Made by a program: the position numbers and the translations under genes. Shown in pieces: positions 7,008 to 48,368 of a stretch of DNA of 64,000 nucleotides. Numbering within the stretch: the first letter of the stretch is position 1; every line of letters starts with the position of its first letter. The DNA is from a virus (lineage: Duplodnaviria; Caudoviricetes). Below the pieces are notes generated by a model. It had not been told where the DNA came from. It did not search any database and saw nothing but the letters and a program-made list of their open reading frames with translations. The stretch lies in IMG/VR virus record IMGVR_UViG_3300024346_000005. One strand, 5' to 3'.

Positions 7008-7742
7008 ATGACTAAAGAATATAAAGGTTTTGCGACCGTTGAGCAACAAGAAGAAGTAAAAGTAAGAAGAGTTCTTATCGGCACACCTGCTCTGGACGGT
7101 AAAGTTCAGGCTTGGTATGCCGATTCTCTTTCCAATTCAATCAAAGTATGTGCCGGAAATGGAATTGATTTGCAACCAGTCATTTTAATTGATGAGAGCA
7201 TTCTGCCAATGGCACGAAATGAACTTCTAAACATTGCATATCAAGATAACTATGAGTCTATTGTTTTTATTGATGCAGATCAAGTATGGGATGCAAGAGC
7301 ACTTTTAGATGTTATCAACTCCCAGCACGATGTAATTGGTCTTCCTGTGGTATCAAAGACTGATGAACCGGGAAACTTTAATGTAAAACTTAAAGGTATC
7401 GACCAAATTGAAAAAGACGAACAAGGAAACATTAAGGTTGATGCAGTAGGAACTGGATTTCTAAAACTTTCCAGAAAAGCACTCGAAGCACTGTGGAACT
7501 CAAATCCAACTACATTGTTTAGAGGAAAAGAACTTAAGTTAATTTGTGAGTATGCAACAAATTATAATGAGTTTGTTGGAGAGGATATTTACCTCTGCAC
7601 TAAACTCAAAGAACTTGAGTTTGATATTTGGATCAATCCAAATGCAACCTGTGCTCATATTGGAAGTAAAGTATGGATGGGAAACTTTGCACACTTTCTT
7701 GAGTTTCTAACAACACAACAACCTGAAGAAATTCAAGAATGA
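7008..7742 (+). CDS. GT-A fold (GT2-like) glycosyltransferase
   Basis: VLIGTP...ARNEL...FIDADQ (DxD)...VGTGFLKLSR...GEDIYLC...HIG pattern. Confidence 0.75.
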   Translation: MTKEYKGFATVEQQEEVKVRRVLIGTPALDGKVQAWYADSLSNSIKVCAGNGIDLQPVILIDESILPMARNELLNIAYQDNYESIVFIDADQVWDARALLDVINSQHDVIGLPVVSKTDEPGNFNVKLKGIDQIEKDEQGNIKVDAVGTGFLKLSRKALEALWNSNPTTLFRGKELKLICEYATNYNEFVGEDIYLCTKLKELEFDIWINPNATCAHIGSKVWMGNFAHFLEFLTTQQPEEIQE

Positions 7743-10236: not shown

Positions 10237-11589
10237 ATGGCAATTGTATACGGTGCAAACTACGGAAGACCCACACTAGATCTTAACTTTGCCAAGAACA
10301 AGAGTCTTATTGACACCATAAGTGGTAGAAATCTTGTTACTTTTACTAGATCCCAAACAGCAAGAGAAGCAACTTATGTGGGTGCTGATGGTCTTATTAA
10401 GACTGCTGCTGCTAATGAACCAAGATTCGACCACAACCCAACAACGGGGGAAAGTCTTGGGTTGTTGGTGGAGGAGGCGAGGACGAACCTGATCAAAAGC
10501 TCCAACAATTTTATATTTAATGATTGGCATTTTACTCAATGCCAGATGACGCCAAATGCTGTGGCAGCACCGGATGGAACGCAAACCGCTGCGTTGATCC
10601 AACAAACCAATGGTACTTCTACTCGGCAATTTATCTGCACTTCTTACTCTGTACCAAGTACCGGATCATCTTGGACTGCTTCTGTATTTGTTAAAAAGTT
10701 TAACTACGACTATGTTATCTTTGGGGCAGGAGATGAGGATTCTGGTTCAAGAGGAAGCAGGTTTGGATACCTTCAAGCTCAACTGCTTTTTCAGTTTTCT
10801 ACCAAAACGTTAACTGTTAACCCGTCTACCAATTGGGGCGGAGTCGTAACAGGCTCTGGATATGAAGAGCTTTCCAACGGTTGGTTCAGGCTTTGGGTGT
10901 CTAAAGCATCCTTTCCTAGAGCGAACTACTGGGGGATTTCTGTGCAGCAAACCCTTACCGGGAGTTTAGAGACCGGCGGGGATCTTAACCTTGTAACCGG
11001 CGACGGCAGTTCGGGGGTGTACTTCTGGGGAATGCAATGGGAATCTGGGGGGTTTAAGACATCTCACATTCCAACTCCGACCAGCGCCACCGTCACCCGC
11101 GCTGCTGATGTGGCAAGCATTACGGGGACTAACTTTTCGAGTTGGTATAACAACAGTGAAGGGACTTTTTTAGCTACTATTCCCGCTGTTTCATTAACAT
11201 ACAACCTTCGTTATCTTATTGATTGTGGCAGCTCTGCAACCAGTGGCGCTGGTGCATCGGGACATGTACTTTTCGGAAACCTAAACAATACTAATGTGGC
11301 TGGTGGCGTTACAGATGTGTCTAACGATTCAGTGGCTGGCCCGTCTGCCGCTTATACCGGCAACATTGTGCGAGTTAGCTACGCTTACAAAGTAAATAAT
11401 TTTAATGCAGCCGTAAACGGTACACTTGGAACGCTAGACACAAGCGGAGCAATTCCAACACTGGGCGCTCAGCAATTAGTTATTGGTTCAAGATTTAATG
11501 GAACTTTTTACATTAACAGAACCATCGCCCGCCTCACCTACTACCCCGTCCGCTTACCCGACGCCACCCTCCAAACCCTCACAAAATAA
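10237..11589 (+). CDS. Virion fibre/spike protein, paralogue B of 9011-10222
   Basis: Same architecture; near-identical first ~75 aa, TRAADVASITGTNFSSWY and TIARLTYYP. Confidence 0.7.
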   Translation: MAIVYGANYGRPTLDLNFAKNKSLIDTISGRNLVTFTRSQTAREATYVGADGLIKTAAANEPRFDHNPTTGESLGLLVEEARTNLIKSSNNFIFNDWHFTQCQMTPNAVAAPDGTQTAALIQQTNGTSTRQFICTSYSVPSTGSSWTASVFVKKFNYDYVIFGAGDEDSGSRGSRFGYLQAQLLFQFSTKTLTVNPSTNWGGVVTGSGYEELSNGWFRLWVSKASFPRANYWGISVQQTLTGSLETGGDLNLVTGDGSSGVYFWGMQWESGGFKTSHIPTPTSATVTRAADVASITGTNFSSWYNNSEGTFLATIPAVSLTYNLRYLIDCGSSATSGAGASGHVLFGNLNNTNVAGGVTDVSNDSVAGPSAAYTGNIVRVSYAYKVNNFNAAVNGTLGTLDTSGAIPTLGAQQLVIGSRFNGTFYINRTIARLTYYPVRLPDATLQTLTK

Positions 11590-11645: not shown

Positions 11646-13586
11646 ATGTCTCAGTTTAATAATATTAAAATTACTCCAAATGTAGGTGCTACTGGTGTAG
11701 GAACTAATCCAAAGATTGAGTTTACCGGTGCAGGTAATTCCACGATTACTCTACAAGTATCCAGTGCTTCTACTGGTGGTTTATTATTTTATGGTGCAAA
11801 TGGTGAGATGCTATCCATTGTGGATGCACCAGAAACATTTCCTTCATTTTCGGTAAATGATCGTTTTAGTATTCCAATTATTGAAGCATATCCAAGTGGT
11901 AACGTATTTTTATCATCATATCCGGGATATCAAGTAGGTATTGGAACTACAGGATTCTCTCAGTCAAATTATAAGTTTGAGGTTTATGGTGGATTAAAGG
12001 TTGATGATATTAGTAGTGGATCCGGTAAGTTTAATGCAAATATTTCAAGAAGTATTGTTGCATCACCGACTGGTGTTCTAAATCCTATTCTTACATTACC
12101 ATCAACAGCAAATAAAGACTATATTATACACTCAATTAGTGTGGCAAATAAGGCACGATATCAACCAGCAGGAGCAGGAGCAACTGTTGGTATTAATACT
12201 TTGGCAGGTGCCGTGACTAGAATTGTAACGGGTGGTGTTGGAACTGGATATACGGCAGGAGATGTATTTGTCAGTATGGGAACCACTGATTTATTAAATC
12301 GTATTTGTGGTCTTGTTGGAATTGCGACAACTTCTTTCGTTGGTGTAGGAACAACCGGAGATCCTGCCTATGCCGGTATCACAAGTGCGATTGGTATTGT
12401 AACGGCAGTCTCTGGTGGTGCAATTACTGGTGTTGCACTGACTTATAATGGATTTGGATATACTACACCACCCGTTGTAACATTCCAAAGTCCGGTTGCG
12501 GGAGGAACAACAGAAACTGGAACCGCAGTATTAACACTTGGAGAAGTCACTGCAGCATATCTTAATGTGCCGGGAGAAGGTTATACAATTCCACCAAATG
12601 TTTCAATTGCTTCAACCACTGGAATTGGCGTACAAATTACTAGTGATGTGGATAGTGATGGAAAAGTTATAAGGTTGAATTTACTCAATAGAGGTTATGG
12701 ATATTCTAAATTAAATCAATTTGGAAACAGTGAGGAGAATGAGGTTTATATTTCACAACCGGGACTTGCAAAAACAGAAGTCGGTGTGGATATAATGTAT
12801 CGTAGAGCACCAGTTGGAACGGCAAATACAATTGATGCTTATATTGCCTTTGATGTTCCTATTCCTGTTGGTGGTGTGCTTGAAGTTCTTAAGCAACCGG
12901 CAGTTATGAATCCAAATGATTCAATTCATATTCGTGGTGTAGATGTGTATGGATCTGGACTTTCTGATGCAATAGATGTTCATATTGCCTATGAAGAAGA
13001 GAATAGCACTGCATTTGTTGGGTTGAGTACCGCACTTGGTTCTACAATTGGTCTGGGAGTAAGTGTATCGGGTACACTTCTCAGTGCAACAACCAATCCA
13101 ATTCTTCTACAGTCCCTAAGACTTACAAATACCGAATTTGTGGGAGATTATGATACTTCTGTAAAAATCGTCAGTGACCGCACAATTGCTTCACTTGCAT
13201 CAACTGCGGCATCTAGTGCAACAACATTCTTTGTTGCCGGTGGCATTAACAGCACCGTAGTTACTACTAACAGTATTGTAAGTATTGGAACGTTTATAGA
13301 TAAAGCACCAATTACTGGAATTGGATCTACTTCATTTACTATTTCAAGAACAAGTCCACTTTCAATTGCAGCAGGAACTGGCGTTACATTCTTTGTATTA
13401 GGTTATGATTCGGTTTATTTTGCAAGAAATCTAATGATTCCTGCATATGCATCCGTAGAACTTTTTGATATGCCGAAGAGATTAGAAAGATATTCTTCTC
13501 TTGTGATTGAAACTGATGTGGTTGGAATTGATCCAAATATTGCAAGTACGATTGACGTAGATTTATCTGGAAAAATTATCTATTAA
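11646..13586 (+). CDS. Virion structural protein (646 aa)
   Basis: G/T-rich with GxGYT.PP.V repeats typical of cyanomyovirus structural proteins. The FSVND..IP.I module is shared with the 343 fibre. ATAAATA at 11614-11620. Confidence 0.65.
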   Translation: MSQFNNIKITPNVGATGVGTNPKIEFTGAGNSTITLQVSSASTGGLLFYGANGEMLSIVDAPETFPSFSVNDRFSIPIIEAYPSGNVFLSSYPGYQVGIGTTGFSQSNYKFEVYGGLKVDDISSGSGKFNANISRSIVASPTGVLNPILTLPSTANKDYIIHSISVANKARYQPAGAGATVGINTLAGAVTRIVTGGVGTGYTAGDVFVSMGTTDLLNRICGLVGIATTSFVGVGTTGDPAYAGITSAIGIVTAVSGGAITGVALTYNGFGYTTPPVVTFQSPVAGGTTETGTAVLTLGEVTAAYLNVPGEGYTIPPNVSIASTTGIGVQITSDVDSDGKVIRLNLLNRGYGYSKLNQFGNSEENEVYISQPGLAKTEVGVDIMYRRAPVGTANTIDAYIAFDVPIPVGGVLEVLKQPAVMNPNDSIHIRGVDVYGSGLSDAIDVHIAYEEENSTAFVGLSTALGSTIGLGVSVSGTLLSATTNPILLQSLRLTNTEFVGDYDTSVKIVSDRTIASLASTAASSATTFFVAGGINSTVVTTNSIVSIGTFIDKAPITGIGSTSFTISRTSPLSIAAGTGVTFFVLGYDSVYFARNLMIPAYASVELFDMPKRLERYSSLVIETDVVGIDPNIASTIDVDLSGKIIY

Positions 13587-17192: not shown

Positions 17193-18239
17193 ATGACTAT
17201 ATCAGGTGCAACTGAAACTGCATATCAATATCTTAATCAATATTACACATTCCCAGAGAACATTATAGTTTCTCATCTTCCACAAGAACTTAAAGATTCA
17301 CAGAAACCAATCAAAATCTTGTGGGCCCATCATGCATACGATCAACAGGTATATCAAAACTTCTCTCACGAACAAGTTACTCATATCGTAGGACCCTCAA
17401 ACTTTGCGAAACAAACTCTACAACAGTTTCACAAAGTCCCACAAGAAAAAATTACAGTCATTCCAAATGGTGTAGATTCACAATACACCTATTCTAATCA
17501 AAAGAAAAAGCAACTGATCTATACTTCAATTCCTTATAAGGCACTTCCAGTTCTTGCATCAGTCATTCCATTAGTTCATTCAATTCATCCTGATGCAAAG
17601 TTTAAGATCTTTTCATCAATGTCTCTTTATGGACCACAGAATGATCCATACTTTGAACTCTACGATCATCTTAAGACTCTACCAAATGTAGAATACTCAA
17701 GAGCAATTGATAGAGAACAACTGATAACTCATTATCAACAATCAGCATTTTTCATATCCCCTTGTATCTGGGAAGAAACATTTGGTGTCTCAATGTGTGA
17801 AGCAATGAGATGTGGTGCTTATCCTATTGTCACGGACATTGGAGCATTAGAAGAAGTTGCTGGACCAAATTTAGCAACTGTGGTTCCTATTGAAGGACAA
17901 AGAACTGTAAAAGGATTTGAGGTCACCGAGAACTTTGTAAAACAGTTTGCAGAGGCAACCTGTGTTGCATTAGATTACTTTGATAAAGATAGAAAGACTT
18001 ATGATGAGGTCTCAAAGTCTTGTAGTGAGTGGGTTGTGAAGTCTTATGATTGGAAGACTATTGCAGGTATGTGGAAGGACCTTGTGAGGGTTCTGGAGAG
18101 ACATACAGTCACTTCTGGTAAGGGATTTGCAAATAAGATTGTAGAAAGAAAAGGTGAGACTTATGTAGAAGATAAGGTTGTGGATGTGGTTCCTACTACC
18201 ACAGGAAGTTATTTCAACTTCGCTAAATACAACAGATGA
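17193..18239 (+). CDS. GT-B fold (GT4-like) glycosyltransferase
   Basis: ITVIPNGVD, LIYTS and the E-x7-E motif ETFGVSMCE followed by AMRCGAYPIVTDIGALEEV. Confidence 0.85.
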   Translation: MTISGATETAYQYLNQYYTFPENIIVSHLPQELKDSQKPIKILWAHHAYDQQVYQNFSHEQVTHIVGPSNFAKQTLQQFHKVPQEKITVIPNGVDSQYTYSNQKKKQLIYTSIPYKALPVLASVIPLVHSIHPDAKFKIFSSMSLYGPQNDPYFELYDHLKTLPNVEYSRAIDREQLITHYQQSAFFISPCIWEETFGVSMCEAMRCGAYPIVTDIGALEEVAGPNLATVVPIEGQRTVKGFEVTENFVKQFAEATCVALDYFDKDRKTYDEVSKSCSEWVVKSYDWKTIAGMWKDLVRVLERHTVTSGKGFANKIVERKGETYVEDKVVDVVPTTTGSYFNFAKYNR

Positions 18240-24080: not shown

Positions 24081-26927
24081 ATGGCGGACAATAAAACTAT
24101 ACAGAAAATATTTTCTTTGAGTGATTTTCGCAAGAAGCAGTTACTGGGCGAAGTTCCTGAGAGAACCAGAGAGACTTATAGGGAATATGGGTATTTTCTA
24201 GGAATTGGTGGACCATTAAATAGACTTGATTACTCAAACGATACAACAACTACAAATAGAAGAACATCAGTAAATCAATATTTTAGTGGTGGGGCAGGCA
24301 ATTCTAATTTTGGATATATTATGGGAGGTAATAAATCTGGATTTAATTATATAACGGATATTAAACGTATTGATTATTCTAATGATACTAATATTTTATC
24401 TAGGGGGGGTTTAACAATTGGAAGATCCTATACAGGAGCAACAGGAAACTCTAACTTTGGATATATTGCGGGGGGAATTACTAGTGCTACACCTGCATAT
24501 ATTTCTACCACAGAAAGAATAAATTATTCCAATGATAATACCACAGCATCAATTAGAGGTCCTTTAACAATATCAAGAGGTATACTTGCAACAGGAAACT
24601 CCAACTTTGGTTATTTTGGTGGGAGCGGACAAGCCCCATCTGGAGGATCTACAGTAGACCGTATAGATTATTCTAATGATAGTGCAACAGCATTATCTAG
24701 AGGTAATATACAAAATTCTAGTTTTAGTTTTAGTGCGACTGGAAATAATAATTTTGGATATTTTTTAACAGGTTGGGGAACATCTTCATCACATCGTTTA
24801 AATTATGCTAATGATACTGCATTATTATCAATTAGAGGATCTTTAAGTTTTCCAAAATTTTGGTGGCCTGGTTCTACAGGAAATTCTAATTTTGGTTACT
24901 CTGTTGGGGGATCTACTACAAGTTCTCAAGGTCAAGCAGTTTCTACTGTTGATAGAATAGATTATAGCAATGATTTAGTAACCGCTTCTGTTCGTGGACC
25001 ATTATCAAATGTTGATCTTACAATTGCAGCAACCTCCTCTGCATCTTTCGGTGGTGCTAAAAACTCTGCCTTCGCATCAAACCTCACATTCCCAACCGTC
25101 CCAAATGCTGGGTATTTTGGTGGTGGAACCGATGGAACGAATAGTCTTGCAACAATTGATAAGGTAGATTATGCGAATGATACAGCAACTGCAAGTGTTC
25201 GAAGTTCTTTGAGTAGCGCAAAGATTTATGTAAAAAGTGTTAGTAATAATAATTTTGGATATTATAATGGGGCAACTGCATATCCAGCAACTTCAAGCAC
25301 TATCGATAGAATTGAATTTTCATCGGACACTCAAAATACAGTTGTTAGAGGACCATTAAGTATAGCAAGAAATAGAGGTGCTGCAACTGGTAATTCTAAC
25401 TTTGGGTATTTTGGGGGTGGTTATGCTCCAGGAAATAGTTCTACAATAGATCGTATTGACTATTCAAATGATAGTGCAAATGCATCCAATAGATGTTTAT
25501 TGACACTAGCAAGAAGAGATTTTTCAGCAACAGGAAATCAAAACTTTGGTTACTTTGGTGGTGGGTTTTCAAGTGTCGTAGTTCCTGTTGTTGATAGACT
25601 TGACTATTCAAATGATACATTAAATACTTTGAGTAGAGGGGGTATAAATGCAAGATATGATAATATAGCAGTTGGAAATCAAAACTTTGGTTACTTTGGT
25701 GGAGGAACTCCTGGAGTATCTTCAGTAGATCGTTTAGATTATTCAAATGATACACAAACATCATCGGTACGAGGTCCATTGAGTTCTGGTAGAGGATCCT
25801 CTGCTGTAACTGGGAATAATAATTTTGGATATATTGGTGGAGGATTTACCCCTTCTGGATCACCAATTTATTACTCAACAACAGACCGCATCAACTACTC
25901 AAACGATACTGCAATCGCATCGGTGAGAGGACCACTACCAGTTGCTAAATCTTCTGGTGCAGCAACCTCTCCATTAGGATACGGAGGTGCTCCAATTTAC
26001 TTCACCAATCCACTTCCAGAGGTCTTCCAGAAGCAGATAGTATTTAATGATTCTAATACTTTAAGTTCCAATATGCCATTTAAGAGAGTATTAGGGTCTT
26101 ATGGGTATTTTAATGCTTGTGGTTCTAATGGACCTGTAACCACAATTATAAATCGCATAGATTACTCTAATGATACATCAATAGCATCGACAAGAGGCCC
26201 TCTAAGTATTGCAAGAAGATGGACAGTTGGTCTATCAAATCAAAATTTTGGGTATATTTCTGGAGGACAAGGTAGTACAAATATGGACCGCATAGATTAT
26301 TCAAATGATACTTCAAATGCAAGATTTTTAATAACCATTACTGGAGAACAAGGAGGAGGATTTTCAAATAATTTTTATGGATATGTTTTTGCAAATACTA
26401 GTTTATTTACTCGTCTAGATTTTTCAAATGATAGTGGATTAACTTTACAAAGAGGAAGAATGATAACCACTAGAAATACCAGTGGTTGTACTTCTACAGA
26501 CTTTTTTGCTTATATTTCTGGAGATATTTCTAGAGTCGATAGAGTAAATTATTCTAACGATACTGCAACTGCTCTTGTAAGAGGAACACTTAATTTAGCT
26601 AGATATAATATATCTGCAACCGGAAACTCTAACTTTGGATATTTTGGTGGTGGATATAGTAATATATCTTCTGTAGAAAGAGTAGATTATTCAAATGATA
26701 CTGCATTAGCATCATTGCGAGGTAATTTTAATTTTGGTAGAAATGCCAATGCTGCTACTGGTAATCAATCTTATGGTTGGTTTAGTTCAGGACAACAAGG
26801 AGGAAATTATCCGTCTAGAGTGGAAAGAATAGATTTTTCTAACGATTTATCTTTGGCTTCTATTAGAGGTCCATTAACAAATTCTAGTTTTTTTGGGACA
26901 GCAACCACCAACGCAAGATCCTCATAA
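24081..26927 (+). CDS. Kelch-like repeat protein 3 (18 repeats, 3 x 6)
   Basis: Same repeat, leader (RETYREYGYF), linker (FKRVLGSYGYF) and terminus (TTNARSS) as the other two paralogues. Confidence 0.75.
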   Translation: MADNKTIQKIFSLSDFRKKQLLGEVPERTRETYREYGYFLGIGGPLNRLDYSNDTTTTNRRTSVNQYFSGGAGNSNFGYIMGGNKSGFNYITDIKRIDYSNDTNILSRGGLTIGRSYTGATGNSNFGYIAGGITSATPAYISTTERINYSNDNTTASIRGPLTISRGILATGNSNFGYFGGSGQAPSGGSTVDRIDYSNDSATALSRGNIQNSSFSFSATGNNNFGYFLTGWGTSSSHRLNYANDTALLSIRGSLSFPKFWWPGSTGNSNFGYSVGGSTTSSQGQAVSTVDRIDYSNDLVTASVRGPLSNVDLTIAATSSASFGGAKNSAFASNLTFPTVPNAGYFGGGTDGTNSLATIDKVDYANDTATASVRSSLSSAKIYVKSVSNNNFGYYNGATAYPATSSTIDRIEFSSDTQNTVVRGPLSIARNRGAATGNSNFGYFGGGYAPGNSSTIDRIDYSNDSANASNRCLLTLARRDFSATGNQNFGYFGGGFSSVVVPVVDRLDYSNDTLNTLSRGGINARYDNIAVGNQNFGYFGGGTPGVSSVDRLDYSNDTQTSSVRGPLSSGRGSSAVTGNNNFGYIGGGFTPSGSPIYYSTTDRINYSNDTAIASVRGPLPVAKSSGAATSPLGYGGAPIYFTNPLPEVFQKQIVFNDSNTLSSNMPFKRVLGSYGYFNACGSNGPVTTIINRIDYSNDTSIASTRGPLSIARRWTVGLSNQNFGYISGGQGSTNMDRIDYSNDTSNARFLITITGEQGGGFSNNFYGYVFANTSLFTRLDFSNDSGLTLQRGRMITTRNTSGCTSTDFFAYISGDISRVDRVNYSNDTATALVRGTLNLARYNISATGNSNFGYFGGGYSNISSVERVDYSNDTALASLRGNFNFGRNANAATGNQSYGWFSSGQQGGNYPSRVERIDFSNDLSLASIRGPLTNSSFFGTATTNARSS

Positions 26928-27656: not shown

Positions 27657-28202
27657 ATGCAATACTTAAAGCATTATTGGGTTCGTAATGGAGAATATCT
27701 AACTGAACCAGGTCAAAATGGTCCTCTACAAAGTCATTCAAATATTTCAGGATTGGATGTTCGTTATTGGTTGACTGATGATCGTGGAGTTGATTATTGC
27801 CTTTCAACGGTTCCAGATAATACTCTAATCACCGAAGTTGATCCTGGTCTTGAGATTCTTACCAGAGAAGAATGGGATGCAATCGTTGCAACCATTCCTG
27901 CACCAGAACCTCAACCACAACCACCCGGTAGTCCTGATTGGAATACATTTAAGCAATCTGCTGTTGCTTCTGTTCTACTCAATACCTTTGTTGGACAATT
28001 AATTAGTATTGCACCTGTTGCCGCAACGGCACTTCCTGCAACTCTACTTCTTATTGAATCTGGAAACTATCAAGATTTTGAGAATACTTGGACCGCAATT
28101 GAAAACGCAACCACAGTTCCAACCGAACTAATTGCCGAATTCACAACTCTTGCAGAGTCTTGTAATCTGCCAGAAGACTTTGTAAATATTTTTGCTACTT
28201 GA
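27657..28202 (+). CDS. Hypothetical protein (181 aa) with Pro-rich linker, possible fibre-assembly protein
   Basis: ORF with late promoter-like CTAAATA upstream. The PAPEPQPQPPGSPDW linker separates two domains. Confidence 0.6.
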   Translation: MQYLKHYWVRNGEYLTEPGQNGPLQSHSNISGLDVRYWLTDDRGVDYCLSTVPDNTLITEVDPGLEILTREEWDAIVATIPAPEPQPQPPGSPDWNTFKQSAVASVLLNTFVGQLISIAPVAATALPATLLLIESGNYQDFENTWTAIENATTVPTELIAEFTTLAESCNLPEDFVNIFAT

Positions 28203-28227
28203 CACCTGACTCAAAATCCCTTATAAT
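28199..28227 (+). promoter_or_regulatory. Consensus sigma70-type promoter
   Basis: TTGACA 28199-28204, 17-nt spacer, TATAAT 28222-28227. Confidence 0.85.
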
Positions 28228-28232
28228 ATAAA

Positions 28233-28329
28233 GGTCTTCAGCATTCCTTGTATCTTTGGGAATGAAGACCCTTTCTGTGGTGAGAAAGGTAAGGTGGTAT
28301 CATAGGAGGAGAGAAATCTCCTCTTTTTT
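28233..28329 (+). ncRNA. Candidate ~97-nt small RNA
   Basis: Lies between a perfect promoter and an intrinsic terminator, contains two hairpins and has no complete ORF. Confidence 0.55.
28306..28329 (+). terminator. Rho-independent terminator
   Basis: GAGGAGA-GAAA-TCTCCTC followed by T6. Confidence 0.85.
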
Positions 28330-28361
28330 CTTATATAAATTATTACAGATATTAAACAATT

Positions 28362-28598
28362 ATGAACTTTACCATATATTCTAAGGATGATTGTCCTTTC
28401 TGCTATAAAGTTAAACAAGTTTTAGAGTTGACAGGAAATAACTTTGTGGTGTATAATCTTAATAAGGATTTCACCAGAGAAGAGTTCTATGCCGAGTTTG
28501 GAGAAGATTCCACATTTCCACAGGTTATTTGTGACGACAAGAGATTGGGCGGTTGCACTGACACCGTTAAGTTTCTGAAGGAACAGCAAATGGTATAA
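28362..28598 (+). CDS. Glutaredoxin
   Basis: CPFC active site, TFPQV and LGGCTD. Confidence 0.9.
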   Translation: MNFTIYSKDDCPFCYKVKQVLELTGNNFVVYNLNKDFTREEFYAEFGEDSTFPQVICDDKRLGGCTDTVKFLKEQQMV

Positions 28599-28774
28599 TG
28601 TCAGACATAAATAATGATATAACACCGAACCGTGGTGTAGAACTTATACTTACTGGAGGAAAAAGAAAACAACCTAAACTTTTTCATCTTATATTTGAGA
28701 AGATGATTTCATTCTTCAAACGAGAAGTAACCATCTATCTTGAATTTTCGATAAAGTCAAGGAAAGTCGAGTAG
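28598..28774 (+). CDS. Small hypothetical protein (58 aa; not in ORF track)
   Basis: MSDINNDITPNRGVELILTGG...EFSIKSRKVE*. TAATG coupling with the glutaredoxin stop. Confidence 0.6.
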   Translation: MSDINNDITPNRGVELILTGGKRKQPKLFHLIFEKMISFFKREVTIYLEFSIKSRKVE

Positions 28775-30042: not shown

Positions 30043-30080
30043 AAGAGAGGATTGACAAGTCCTCTCTTTTTTTGTATAAT
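30043..30080 (+). promoter_or_regulatory. Terminator hairpin with sigma70 -35 box in its loop
   Basis: AAGAGAGGA-[TTGACAAG]-TCCTCTCTT then a T-run. TTGACA 30052-57, 17 nt, TATAAT 30075-80. Confidence 0.8.
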
Positions 30081-31435: not shown

Positions 31436-32188
31436 ATGGCAAGAAGAAAAAGAGCAGAGCAACAAAATGATGTTGGTCTTACCACTCGTCAAGCAAAGCG
31501 TAAAAAACCGTTAAGCGGTGAATATCTAGTAGATATTGACCCACTCACTGATAATCAGAAAAAACTTTTTGATTCTTATGCGGAACAAAAACATTTAGTT
31601 GCCTATGGGTGTGCCGGTACTGGTAAAACTTTTATTACTCTTTATAATGCTCTTCGTGAGGTTTTGGATGAAAAAACACCTTACGAAAAAATCTATCTTG
31701 TCCGTTCTTTAGTTGCCACAAGAGAAATTGGATTTCTTCCTGGTTCTTATGATGATAAGTCGGATATTTACCAAATTCCTTATAAGAATATGGTAAAGTA
31801 TATGTTCCAGATGCCTTCTGATGCTGAATTTGAGATGCTTTATGGCAATCTCAAGGCACAGGAAACCATTAAGTTCTGGAGTACTTCATTCCTCAGAGGA
31901 ACCACGCTTGATAATTCTATTATTATTGTGGATGAGTTCCAGAACGCAAATTTCCACGAATTATGTTCTATTATTACTCGTGTGGGTGAAAACTCCAAGA
32001 TTATGTTCTGTGGAGATGCTACTCAATCTGATTTAATAAAAACAAATGAAAAAAATGGTGTAATTGATTTTATGAAAATTTTGAGAACTATGCCGTCTAT
32101 TGATATAATTGAGTTTGGTATTGATGATGTGATTCGTTCAGGATTGGTTAAGGAATTTTTAATCGCCCAACACGCACTCGGATTATAA
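31436..32188 (+). CDS. phoH: PhoH-family ATPase
   Basis: GCAGTGKT Walker A, IGFLPG, LRGTTLD, DEFQN, GDATQSDL and RSGLV. Confidence 0.95.
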   Translation: MARRKRAEQQNDVGLTTRQAKRKKPLSGEYLVDIDPLTDNQKKLFDSYAEQKHLVAYGCAGTGKTFITLYNALREVLDEKTPYEKIYLVRSLVATREIGFLPGSYDDKSDIYQIPYKNMVKYMFQMPSDAEFEMLYGNLKAQETIKFWSTSFLRGTTLDNSIIIVDEFQNANFHELCSIITRVGENSKIMFCGDATQSDLIKTNEKNGVIDFMKILRTMPSIDIIEFGIDDVIRSGLVKEFLIAQHALGL

Positions 32189-32253: not shown

Positions 32254-32979
32254 GTGTATAATATTTACTTAATTACCAACCTTGATAATAATAAAAAGTA
32301 TGTTGGACTAACAAAGTTTTCTATCACGGAAAGATTTTATCAACACGTAAAAAGAGGATTTCTTCTAACTGAGGCAATCAAAAAGTACGGTGAAGATAAG
32401 TTTTTTATTGAATTGATTGAAGAAGTTGATACTGCTGGAAGAGCATATGAATTGGAGCAGTATTATATTAAAGAGTATAATACCAAAGTTCCTTATGGTT
32501 ATAATTTAACTGATGGTGGCGACGGCATTTTTGGTTGGGAAGTAACCGAAGAATATCGTCAAGAATGTTCCGAAAGAGTTAAACAACTTCATAAAGAAAA
32601 AAAAGTTGGTATGTACGGTAAGAATCATAGTGATGAAACAAAAAGAAAAATGAGTGTCGCCTCAAAAGGTAAATCAAAACCTTGGTTAATTGGAAGAAAA
32701 CTGAGTCCAGAATCTATTGAAAAATTGCGTCAAATAAATCTTGGTAGAGTTCTTAGTGATGAAACTAGAAAAAAAATTAGTGAAAATCATCACGATGTAA
32801 ATGGGGAAAATAATCCTATGTATGGAAAAAAGCACTCTCCAGAAACTATTGAAAAGTTAAGAGAAAAGGCAAAAAATCGTCCAAAGAGAGTTTGGATTAA
32901 TAATGGTATTGAAGAAAAACTTATGAATATTGACGAATCTATACCTATGGGTTATAATAAAGGAAGAGTGAGGTCTTAA
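32254..32979 (+). mobile_element. Free-standing GIY-YIG homing endonuclease (Seg-like, NUMOD3 repeats)
   Basis: NIYLITN...KKYVG...ERF..H...LEQYYI...GYNLT.GG, then HSDETKRKMS / LSDETRKKIS / HSPETIEKL repeats. Confidence 0.88.
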
Positions 32980-33657
32980 ATGTTTAATCATCTTGATAAT
33001 GTACTTCCTCAACTTGAGAGAGCAACAATTGATGGGGTCCGATATTACAGCATCCCAGATGGAGACCAACTACTCAAGATGGTCTCCATCACCTCAGTAA
33101 CCAGTCATTTTAATAAGGAAATCTTTGTCAAGTGGCGTAAGAGAGTTGGTGTAGAAGAGGCAGATAAAATCACCAAGGCAGCAACCAGTCGTGGAACTGA
33201 TATGCACACTCTGGTTGAGAACTATCTTTATAATAGAGAGCTTCCTCCGGTTCAACCCATATCAGATTTTCTTTTTAAGATTGCTAAAACTGAACTGAAT
33301 AAAATTGATAATATTTACTGCCTAGAAGGTGCTTTGTATAGTAAGCAACTTGGTGTGGCAGGAACAACTGACTGTATTGCCGAGTTTGATGGAGAACTTG
33401 CGGTTATAGACTTCAAGACTTCTAAAAAACCCAAACCCAGAGAATGGATTGAGAATTATTTCGTTCAGGCGATGTTCTATGGAATGGCACTTTATGAGAT
33501 GACAGATATTCCGATTAAGAAACTAGTAATCATTATGGCATGTGAGAATGGTGAATGTGTGGTGTACGAAGAAAGAGACCTAAACAAGTATATGAAACTT
33601 GTGGTCCAATACATCAAAAAGTTTGTGAACGATAAACTAGAACATATGTCTACTTGA
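32980..33657 (+). CDS. PD-(D/E)xK exonuclease (cyanomyovirus exonuclease)
   Basis: SITSV...RGT.MH.L.E...E..LYS...AGTTDCIAEFDGELAVIDFKTS...YFVQ...Y. Confidence 0.85.
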   Translation: MFNHLDNVLPQLERATIDGVRYYSIPDGDQLLKMVSITSVTSHFNKEIFVKWRKRVGVEEADKITKAATSRGTDMHTLVENYLYNRELPPVQPISDFLFKIAKTELNKIDNIYCLEGALYSKQLGVAGTTDCIAEFDGELAVIDFKTSKKPKPREWIENYFVQAMFYGMALYEMTDIPIKKLVIIMACENGECVVYEERDLNKYMKLVVQYIKKFVNDKLEHMST

Positions 33658-33682
33658 CTAATTGATTATTATATCTTATAAT
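33654..33682 (+). promoter_or_regulatory. sigma70-type promoter
   Basis: TTGACT 33654-59, 17 nt, TATAAT 33677-82. Confidence 0.7.
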
Positions 33683-34605: not shown

Positions 34606-34927
34606 TTTTTTTGATTCTGATATTATTCAGGATGAACTAAAAGAAATCAATCAACTTCAAGAGTTTATATACAATAGTATTTTAACTTTTGGTATGATGC
34701 CTCGTGAAGATAAACTGGAACATATTGATAAAATGACAATACTGCTTGAAAAGCAGCGTATTATGTACACAAGACTTTCTCTTTCTGATGACCCTCAGGC
34801 AATTGAGATGAAAGAGAATCTGAGAAGGTCAGTTGCTCTGATGGGATTTCCACCAGAGACTGATATGAATATTCTTTTCAGCAGTATGACAAAAACAATT
34901 GAGTCACTCAAAAAGTACCTTGACTAA
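34598..34927 (+). CDS. Conserved cyanophage hypothetical protein (DUF1825-like)
   Basis: FFDSDIIQDEL...LLEKQRIMYTRLSLSDDP.A, located between gp59 and gp32. Confidence 0.7.
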   Translation: MSSFFDSDIIQDELKEINQLQEFIYNSILTFGMMPREDKLEHIDKMTILLEKQRIMYTRLSLSDDPQAIEMKENLRRSVALMGFPPETDMNILFSSMTKTIESLKKYLD

Positions 34928-34948
34928 TGAGTGATTTTTTGCTATAAT
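34920..34948 (+). promoter_or_regulatory. sigma70-type promoter of gp32
   Basis: TTGACT 34920-25, 17 nt, TATAAT 34943-48. Confidence 0.75.
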
Positions 34949-35901: not shown

Positions 35902-35910
35902 TAAGGTAAA

Positions 35911-35936
35911 GGGGAGAGAAATCTCCTCTTTTTTAT
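35911..35936 (+). terminator. Intrinsic terminator between convergent gp32 and gp53
   Basis: GGGGAGA-GAAA-TCTCCTC-T6, almost identical to 28306-28329. Confidence 0.85.
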
Positions 35937-47920: not shown

Positions 47921-48120
47921 ATGACAAATATTAATTTACGGGCAGGTCGGATGGTGGAACGGCAAGTATTATACAAGGGTATGATTTTATAACTGACCTC
48001 AATCAAATGTGGTTGGAAGATGGTGTTGATGGCGACTACAATGACCTTCGATGGATTCCAAGTCAGGGTGAAATATTTGATAATGGTGGTGGTAATTTTA
48101 CTTATATATTATACTATTGA
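47921..48120 (+). pseudogene. Frameshifted small ORF (MTNIN/F-TGRSDGG...DGDYNDL...YY*)
   Basis: The ATG 47921 frame stops after 23 codons. The -1 frame is open 47935-48120 and encodes W.EDG.DGDYNDL. One extra T at about 47935 would join them. Confidence 0.4.
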
Positions 48121-48127
48121 CAACCCC

Positions 48128-48156
48128 TTGACAACCCGCCCCAGATGCCCTATAAT
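48128..48156 (+). promoter_or_regulatory. Consensus sigma70-type promoter
   Basis: TTGACA 48128-33, 17 nt, TATAAT 48151-56. Confidence 0.85.
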
Positions 48157-48182
48157 ACATAGGTAATCAAACGAAACGCCTG

Positions 48183-48368
48183 ATGCCTGTCGAAGAGACC
48201 CTGACCCGCTGTGTTGTCGATACTCTTGCTCGTAAGTTCTATCTGTATTCAAGCGAAGGTGGTGAAAAAGTTGTGAATTGTGAGACCGTAGACCAGTTTA
48301 TGAATGTTCTTGAAGTGGTTCGTGCTCAGGTAAGTGATGATTGTCTTGCATACTCAAATCCTCTTTGA
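48183..48368 (+). CDS. Small hypothetical protein
   Basis: First ORF after the 48128 promoter. Confidence 0.65.
   Translation: MPVEETLTRCVVDTLARKFYLYSSEGGEKVVNCETVDQFMNVLEVVRAQVSDDCLAYSNPL

Follow-up and report, generated by a model that had tools for sequence, protein, structure and literature searches.

GcvB is a trans-acting small RNA of enterobacteria that carries a G/U-rich seed, and CsrB and RsmZ are small RNAs that sequester protein. The put RNAs of phage HK022 act in cis as processive antiterminators. Cyanophages govern a large part of the turnover of aquatic picocyanobacteria, and almost nothing is known about their regulatory RNAs; structured small RNAs produced early in infection are essentially unexplored in these phages. 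The main text of a 2023 screen for structured viral RNAs cites an antisense RNA, CfrI, of cyanophage S-PM2 (Millard et al. 2010, cited in PMC10690425). T4-type phages are also known to carry PeSL cassettes, in which a stem-loop overlaps or abuts promoter boxes and is followed by a Shine-Dalgarno sequence and a start codon (Arbiol et al. 2010, PMC2839356). These cassettes are present in many copies per genome and are located in hyperplastic regions (PMC2839356).

Here we describe an element in a 64,000-nucleotide stretch of viral DNA (the window; IMG/VR record IMGVR_UViG_3300024346_000005), which comes from the genome of a T4-like cyanophage. Among named phages, the freshwater Synechococcus phage S-SRM01 (Kyanoviridae) is the nearest relative, with approximately 75% nucleotide identity over nrdC. 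The element is a new family of a kind already known, the phage-encoded small RNA. Comparison among relatives shows a predicted promoter-to-terminator unit with two covarying helices, exposed G/U-rich boxes and no conserved open reading frame (ORF). We consider it probable that this unit, as an early gene standing on its own, encodes a non-coding RNA of ~95-105 nt that acts in trans via two G/U-rich boxes. The predicted early RNA family is widespread but dispensable, and it combines clear covariation with a precise predicted 5′ end and two exposed GGUGG boxes.

Several described RNAs resemble this element in part. The lambda OOP RNA, which has a promoter and terminator of its own, and CfrI are likewise short, phage-encoded, non-coding transcripts, but they are antisense to a neighboring gene, whereas the present family is defined by its structure and its predicted RNA overlaps no gene on the opposite strand. 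With GcvB the family shares a similar size, a promoter and intrinsic terminator of its own, and conserved single-stranded G/U-rich regions flanked by hairpins. However, there is no homology in sequence or structure, and the present RNA is encoded by phages of cyanobacterial hosts. GcvB also has one long seed in place of the two short GGUGG boxes seen here, for which searches of the window and of five picocyanobacterial genomes gave no C/A-rich targets. The likeness to CsrB and RsmZ lies in a short motif that is repeated in hairpin loops and linkers and that may move as long as it stays exposed, although only two or three boxes are present here and they read GGUG/GUGG rather than GGA.

A predicted transcription unit upstream of nrdC

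The unit occupies positions 28199-28329 (Table 1). All of the parts listed for it in the original prediction, which was made from the window's letters and a list of their ORFs, were found again: the perfect TTGACA-N17-TATAAT promoter (28199-28227), the second hairpin with its GUGGUG loop, the unpaired stretch followed by a terminator with a GNRA-type cap and T6, and the TATAAAT box of the next gene. The first hairpin also lies where it had been placed, although its bulge, previously read as CAG, is GCA in the register of the family. When the predicted 97-nt RNA (28233-28329) is folded, the minimum free energy (MFE) is -34.2 kcal/mol, with z = -2.7 relative to dinucleotide shuffles. The linker in the window is 3 nt shorter than the family consensus, which reads GUGAGUUGGUGGUAUAAU.

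Table 1. Features of the small RNA unit and of the gene that follows it in the window.
Feature	Position	Strand	Remarks
-35 box TTGACA	28199-28204	+	early (sigma-70-type) promoter; overlaps stop of upstream ORF
TGA stop of upstream 181-aa ORF	28200-28202		within the -35 box
-10 box TATAAT	28222-28227	+	spacer 17 nt; predicted start about 28233/28234
Hairpin P1	28233-28270	+	GUCUU/AAGAC base, 3-nt bulge, inner stem, 9-nt loop; MFE fold
P1 outer stem	28233-28240 with 28263-28270		
P1 bulge	28241-28243		GCA (family consensus and MFE fold)
P1 inner stem	28244-28248 with 28258-28262		
P1 loop	28249-28257		UGUAUCUUU; conserved
Hairpin P2	28271-28288	+	directly abuts P1; G/U box 1 in loop
P2 hexaloop	28277-28282		GUGGUG
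Linker	28289-28303	+	unpaired in MFE fold; G/U box 2 = GGUGGU, 28293-28298
Intrinsic terminator	28304-28329	+	9-bp stem, GAAA loop, U6; arms 28304-28312 / 28317-28325; T6 run up to 28329
Late-type TATAAAT box	28334-28340	+	outside the RNA; also kept in nrdC loci without the element
nrdC (glutaredoxin, 78 aa)	28362-28598	+	Pfam PF00462, E = 1.8e-12

Perfect 12/12 promoters are expected about 0.1 times in the whole window on the basis of base composition, and three are present on the + strand between 20 and 38 kb. The decisive evidence against a chance arrangement is the conservation and covariation observed in relatives and described below. More perfect or 11/12 sigma-70-type promoters are located on the + strand at 28428-28457, 32081-32109, 32930-32958, 33654-33682 and 34920-34948. 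One of these lies inside nrdC, and the region from 28 to 35 kb resembles a series of early promoter units.

A search of the whole window with Rfam 15 at gathering thresholds returned two tRNAs only. In the region 27900-28700, a search with the limit set to E <= 10 gave PYLIS_5 as its top match, at 24.3 bits versus a cut-off of 60. This agrees with the original prediction, in which no named Rfam family was recognized. We found no publication describing the family. The genome paper of S-SRM01 does not mention the element, and neither nrdC nor glutaredoxin appears in the main text of the 2023 screen for viral structured RNAs (PMC10690425). An entry in RNA family libraries is warranted, so that annotators no longer skip the element or mistake it for a small ORF.

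The family is phage-specific and present once per genome

Among the matches listed from viral and metagenome contigs, 154 distinct members with full context were identified, in addition to the copy of the cultured phage S-SRM01, which lies at 10976-11052 where no feature is annotated. Pattern scans for P1 yielded at least 118 viral stretches and at least 120 from metagenome contigs. A covariance model built on the structured core (R1) confirmed 28 and 52 matches, with scores of 31-100 bits. In blastn searches among named phages, S-SRM01 was the sole match. Because the family is present in the cultured pair formed by S-SRM01 and Synechococcus KCZYC6, both the partner of the RNA and a role in early take-over are directly testable.

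The covariance model finds a single significant copy in the window (80.7 bits) and likewise one copy per genome in three complete relatives (G002, G162 and G163) and in S-SRM01. With the same model the element was not found in the complete relative G003, which does carry nrdC, nor in Syn9 or S-SSM7. We also compared 81 upstream regions, from loci fetched via the nrdC protein (80), from S-SRM01 and from the window; the element lies upstream of nrdC in 47 of them, while the remaining 34 nrdC loci lack it. No match to the strict P1 pattern was obtained in 185,579 prokaryote species (one genome each), and in 5 + 151 Cyanobiaceae genomes the covariance model gave nothing above 21 bits. Given these copy counts, the relatives without the element and the lack of host matches, the predicted RNA is phage-specific, single-copy and dispensable for some relatives.

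One weak match in a host genome was inspected as a possible homologue. It is located in GC-rich sequence and looks like a product of chance. A weak match to the small RNA model within the window itself (17746-17806; 17 bits, E = 0.018) falls inside an ORF (17193-18239) and is probably also due to chance.

Promoter and terminator are conserved together with the core

Of the 154 members, 145 retain the geometry TTGACN-17-TANNNT-6 and 144 retain a terminator. The -35 box reads TTGACA in 123 of the 154 and TTGACN in 145. Among the 83-84 unique members counted before the metagenome loci were added, 75 have TTGACA as the -35 box and 67 have TATAAT as the -10 box. All 83 members that carry the promoter have a spacer of exactly 17 nt, and exactly 6 nt separate the -10 box from the GUCUU of P1 in 82 of 83. 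Since this second distance is fixed, the RNA should begin at the base of P1. Loss of the promoter was observed in one lineage (L199/L125).

Sixty-five distinct terminator hairpins are present among the relatives, each followed by 5-8 U residues, and the median pairing probability of the terminator helix in the thermodynamic ensemble is 0.956. These results, together with the covariation of the hairpins, support the original proposal of a self-contained early small RNA that would be transcribed by host RNA polymerase. We also considered a second promoter formed by the linker word TGGTATAAT. This candidate was rejected, as the -10-like hexamer is lost in many members in which GGUGGU is kept.

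Terminators near-identical to that of the small RNA (GGAGAGAAATCTCCTC followed by a T run) are present at 35910-35933 of the window and at G001:C1:13687-13708. This terminator module is reused within the genome.

Two hairpins are conserved by compensatory changes

Covariation in relatives had been named in the original prediction as a way of checking the hairpins, and it was found in two separate sets at about twice the score of shuffled alignments. The two disjoint sets of loci, A5 and A6, were aligned to the model. Standard pairs are formed in 93.4% of cells in A5 and in 95.0% in A6, and changes on both sides occur at 7 and 9 pairs, respectively. The covariation score of A5 is 0.312, compared to 0.175 for shuffled alignments and 0.154 for the best slid-partner control; the corresponding values for A6 are 0.318, 0.151 and 0.109. 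In neither set was the observed score reached by any of 500 shuffles.

Because the alignments of A5 and A6 were fitted to the model, P2 was also parsed by hand. This revealed ten different stems of 7-9 bp, all of them fully paired, enclosing an invariant GUGGUG loop and following directly after P1. In A5 and A6, 4-6 of the 7 pairs of P2 have changed on both sides. In P1, outer pairs 6-7 and the inner stem carry compensatory changes, and 95-100% of their cells are paired. In contrast, its first five pairs (GUCUU/AAGAC) and its 9-nt loop vary hardly or never, and are therefore constrained as sequence. Single-sequence MFE folds of most members contain the same three hairpins. The predicted fold of P1 and P2 is thus established by covariation. 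We also evaluated a pseudoknot in which the P1 loop would pair with the 5′ part of the linker, and rejected it, since its pairing and covariation did not exceed those of shuffles.

The only ORF through the element starts at TTG 28256, ends at 28384 and encodes 42 aa; it contains ATG 28262. A small protein of 40-42 codons, initiated at TTG 28256 or at ATG 28262, might be proposed as the product on the grounds that this frame is open and that 48 of 83 members have an AUG at the same place. However, the AUG is missing in the other 35, the peptides of different members are frameshifted and stop at different places, and the frame crosses the terminator with its AUG inside the stem of P1. We regard a coding function as extremely improbable. 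As the original prediction stated, no ORF is completed inside the unit; the frame with ATG 28262 continues past the terminator and lacks conservation among members.

G/U-rich boxes are exposed in loops and linkers

A G/U-rich box of the form GGUG/GUGG, mostly UGGUGGU, is present in nearly every member twice. Two or more exposed boxes were counted in 120 of 145 scored members, or ~80% overall. In the main group, box 1 forms the loop of P2 and box 2 lies in the linker, and GGUGGU is invariant in the alignments. The GUGGUG of the P2 loop and the UGGUGGU of the linker are both conserved and unpaired, as in a G/U-rich seed. The loop of P2 reads UUGGUGGU in a divergent subgroup, whose second box is found either in the loop of a small third hairpin (AAGGUG) or in the loop of the terminator (GUGGUG, UGGUG or GUUGGUGU). 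A short variant represented by L010 and L057 lacks the 3′ arm of P2 and has a single box.

Several copies of the motif are thus exposed in loops, as in sponge-type RNAs, and the position of the second copy varies. Because the second box shifts among loops and yet is kept, the mature RNA would include the terminator hairpin and present two binding sites. This shift argues for the terminator hairpin as part of the predicted functional RNA.

These data also bear on the possibility that selection acts on the DNA, with the element serving as a PeSL-like recombination hotspot or a Chi-like TGGTGG site and the RNA itself having no function. The element does lie at a boundary between variable and conserved regions, with upstream flanks that differ between relatives, and composite sites like those of PeSLs occur nearby. 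For example, at 30043-30080 a terminator-like hairpin carries TTGACA in its loop, with TATAAT 17 nt farther on, which corresponds to a composite terminator and early-promoter site of the PeSL type. Moreover, one contig (L100) has a second, truncated copy at 12583-12650 on the - strand, consisting of the promoter, P1 and half of P2. This copy is joined to a glycine-rich ORF exactly at GTGGTGG, and the junction looks like recombination at microhomology with GGT glycine codons.

Like PeSLs, the element combines a strong sigma-70-like early promoter with a terminator stem-loop and borders a variable region of a T4-like genome. However, a conserved, structured and covarying RNA core of 70 nt separates promoter from terminator, the hairpins begin at +1 with the terminator following ~70 nt on, and neither a start codon nor an ORF follows in the unit. 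Each genome has one copy, where PeSLs are present in many. Compensatory changes preserve two RNA helices that a DNA site would not need, and the conserved boxes are found in loops or single strands whatever their position. A role confined to the DNA is therefore very unlikely in our view.

The word GGTGGT occurs 81 times on the + strand of the window, versus ~7 expected from composition. This excess is due to the glycine-rich repeats of large structural proteins, such as those encoded at 24081-26927. In one lineage only (L094 and L149), a C/A-rich stretch between the terminator of the small RNA and the promoter of the next gene includes two CCACC words, which are complementary to the GGUGG boxes.

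Genetic contexts and downstream genes

Large glycine-rich structural genes, a gene for a 2OG-Fe(II) oxygenase and the 181-aa ORF are located upstream of the element in the window. Downstream are nrdC, small ORFs, and genes for a DUF6433 protein, ThyX, PhoH, a GIY-YIG endonuclease and gp32. Among the family members, the next gene is nrdC in 102 cases, a gene similar to gp150 of Syn9 in 15-16, and an ORF of 212 aa in 4, with a few other genes besides. The gp150-like gene, annotated as 'peptidase', stands behind the unit in the divergent subgroup, and one contig of this kind carries a bilin reductase gene. In the 4 members with the 212-aa ORF, this ORF is inserted exactly at the start of nrdC. 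Promoter-like boxes of their own are present at the downstream genes.

An attenuator or riboswitch-like leader for the glutaredoxin operon, which the original prediction had offered as the alternative to a small RNA, is disfavored by this diversity, since genes other than nrdC can follow the unit and many copies of nrdC occur without it. Furthermore, thermodynamic predictions give no mutually exclusive terminator and antiterminator folds, and the downstream genes are not functionally coherent.

A more general cis-acting leader deserves consideration. P1 and P2 might modify RNA polymerase, by processive antitermination resembling that of HK022 put, or might bind a factor or ligand. Polymerases from the early promoter would then pass the terminator, so that the downstream gene is expressed early, while read-through from the upstream late genes would be stopped. 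Such a function could explain why the next gene always follows the element directly and in the same orientation, why two adjoining hairpins with an invariant, non-covarying stem base stand at +1 of an early promoter, and how nrdC, which otherwise has only a late-type TATAAAT box, might be expressed early. The put RNAs also have two adjoining hairpins directly after early phage promoters, with a terminator beyond, although the likeness concerns layout only.

Nevertheless, a cis-acting leader seems unlikely to us. The genes that follow are functionally unrelated and have promoter-like boxes of their own, and the element is missing in front of ~40% of related nrdC genes. No competing antiterminator pairing was predicted, as the 5′ arm of the terminator pairs upstream with a median probability of 0.001. 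In every context the terminator is an integral and adjacent part of the conserved module, unlike in put, and in some members its loop carries a conserved box. The adjacent terminator with its conserved box and the separate boxes of the downstream genes fit a discrete RNA better than a put-like antiterminator.

Other early units were noted in the same regions. At 48108-48185 of the window, an early promoter precedes a small ORF with a conserved leader (GGTAATCAA.CG.AAC) between them, and in L118 (~7160-7240) a homologous promoter, leader and ORF are located directly behind the small RNA unit, in place of nrdC. In the divergent subgroup (L184 and L202), another early promoter is present together with ~120 nt of conserved non-coding sequence, ~110-300 nt past the start of the small RNA. 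This sequence lies between the terminator of the small RNA and the gp150-like gene, and may represent a long leader or a further small RNA.

Possible modes of action

From the arrangement of conserved parts we infer early transcription by the host polymerase, a discrete product of ~97 nt and action in trans through the boxes. Host RNA polymerase with the primary sigma factor would start at the consensus promoter on the first base of P1, as the fixed 6-nt distance suggests, and would stop at the intrinsic terminator ~97 nt farther on. The transcript is predicted to fold into the bulged hairpin P1, the hairpin P2 (7-9 bp, GUGGUG) stacked on it, a G/U-rich strand and the terminator hairpin. The two exposed GGUG/GUGG boxes would be its working parts, acting in trans early in infection.

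The boxes may pair with C/A-rich (CCACC-like) stretches of host RNAs, in the manner of GcvB. Alternatively, they may form a two-site decoy for an RNA-binding protein, in the manner of CsrB and RsmZ; to our knowledge, CsrA is not a cyanobacterial protein. We place RNA pairing slightly above a protein decoy. In the window, CCACC-type words are not enriched at the start sites of phage genes, and in five picocyanobacterial genomes sequences complementary to the linker do not outnumber those matching a control. A complementary RNA with four hairpins and C(C/G)GCCA loops, which would pair with UGGUGG, was also sought, and no such array is present in S-SRM01, G002, G003 or G001.

A more speculative idea, which we hold to be quite improbable, is that the GGUGG boxes bind the translation machinery directly and that host ribosomes or uncharged tRNAs are titrated or re-directed by the early RNA. 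The 3′ tail of 16S rRNA contains AUCACC beside the anti-Shine-Dalgarno sequence, with which GGUGGU (in one lineage GGUGAU) could pair, and UGGU could pair with the ACCA 3′ end of tRNAs. We know of no phage for which take-over by an early RNA that titrates ribosomes or tRNAs has been described.

Four public metatranscriptome runs contain small parts of the stretch, in assembled contigs that cannot show transcript ends. A single contig from an RNA library covers the element; it comes from a relative, includes the neighboring upstream gene and nrdC as well, and may represent DNA carry-over.

A search for ORFs that co-occur with the element was conducted with seven genomes only, and therefore has low power. 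Among the 288 ORFs of G002, 3 small unannotated ones are present in all four complete genomes that bear the element and absent from the three that do not. Two of these (57 aa and 134 aa) belong to phrog_1609 and phrog_6458, and are thus known from other phages too.
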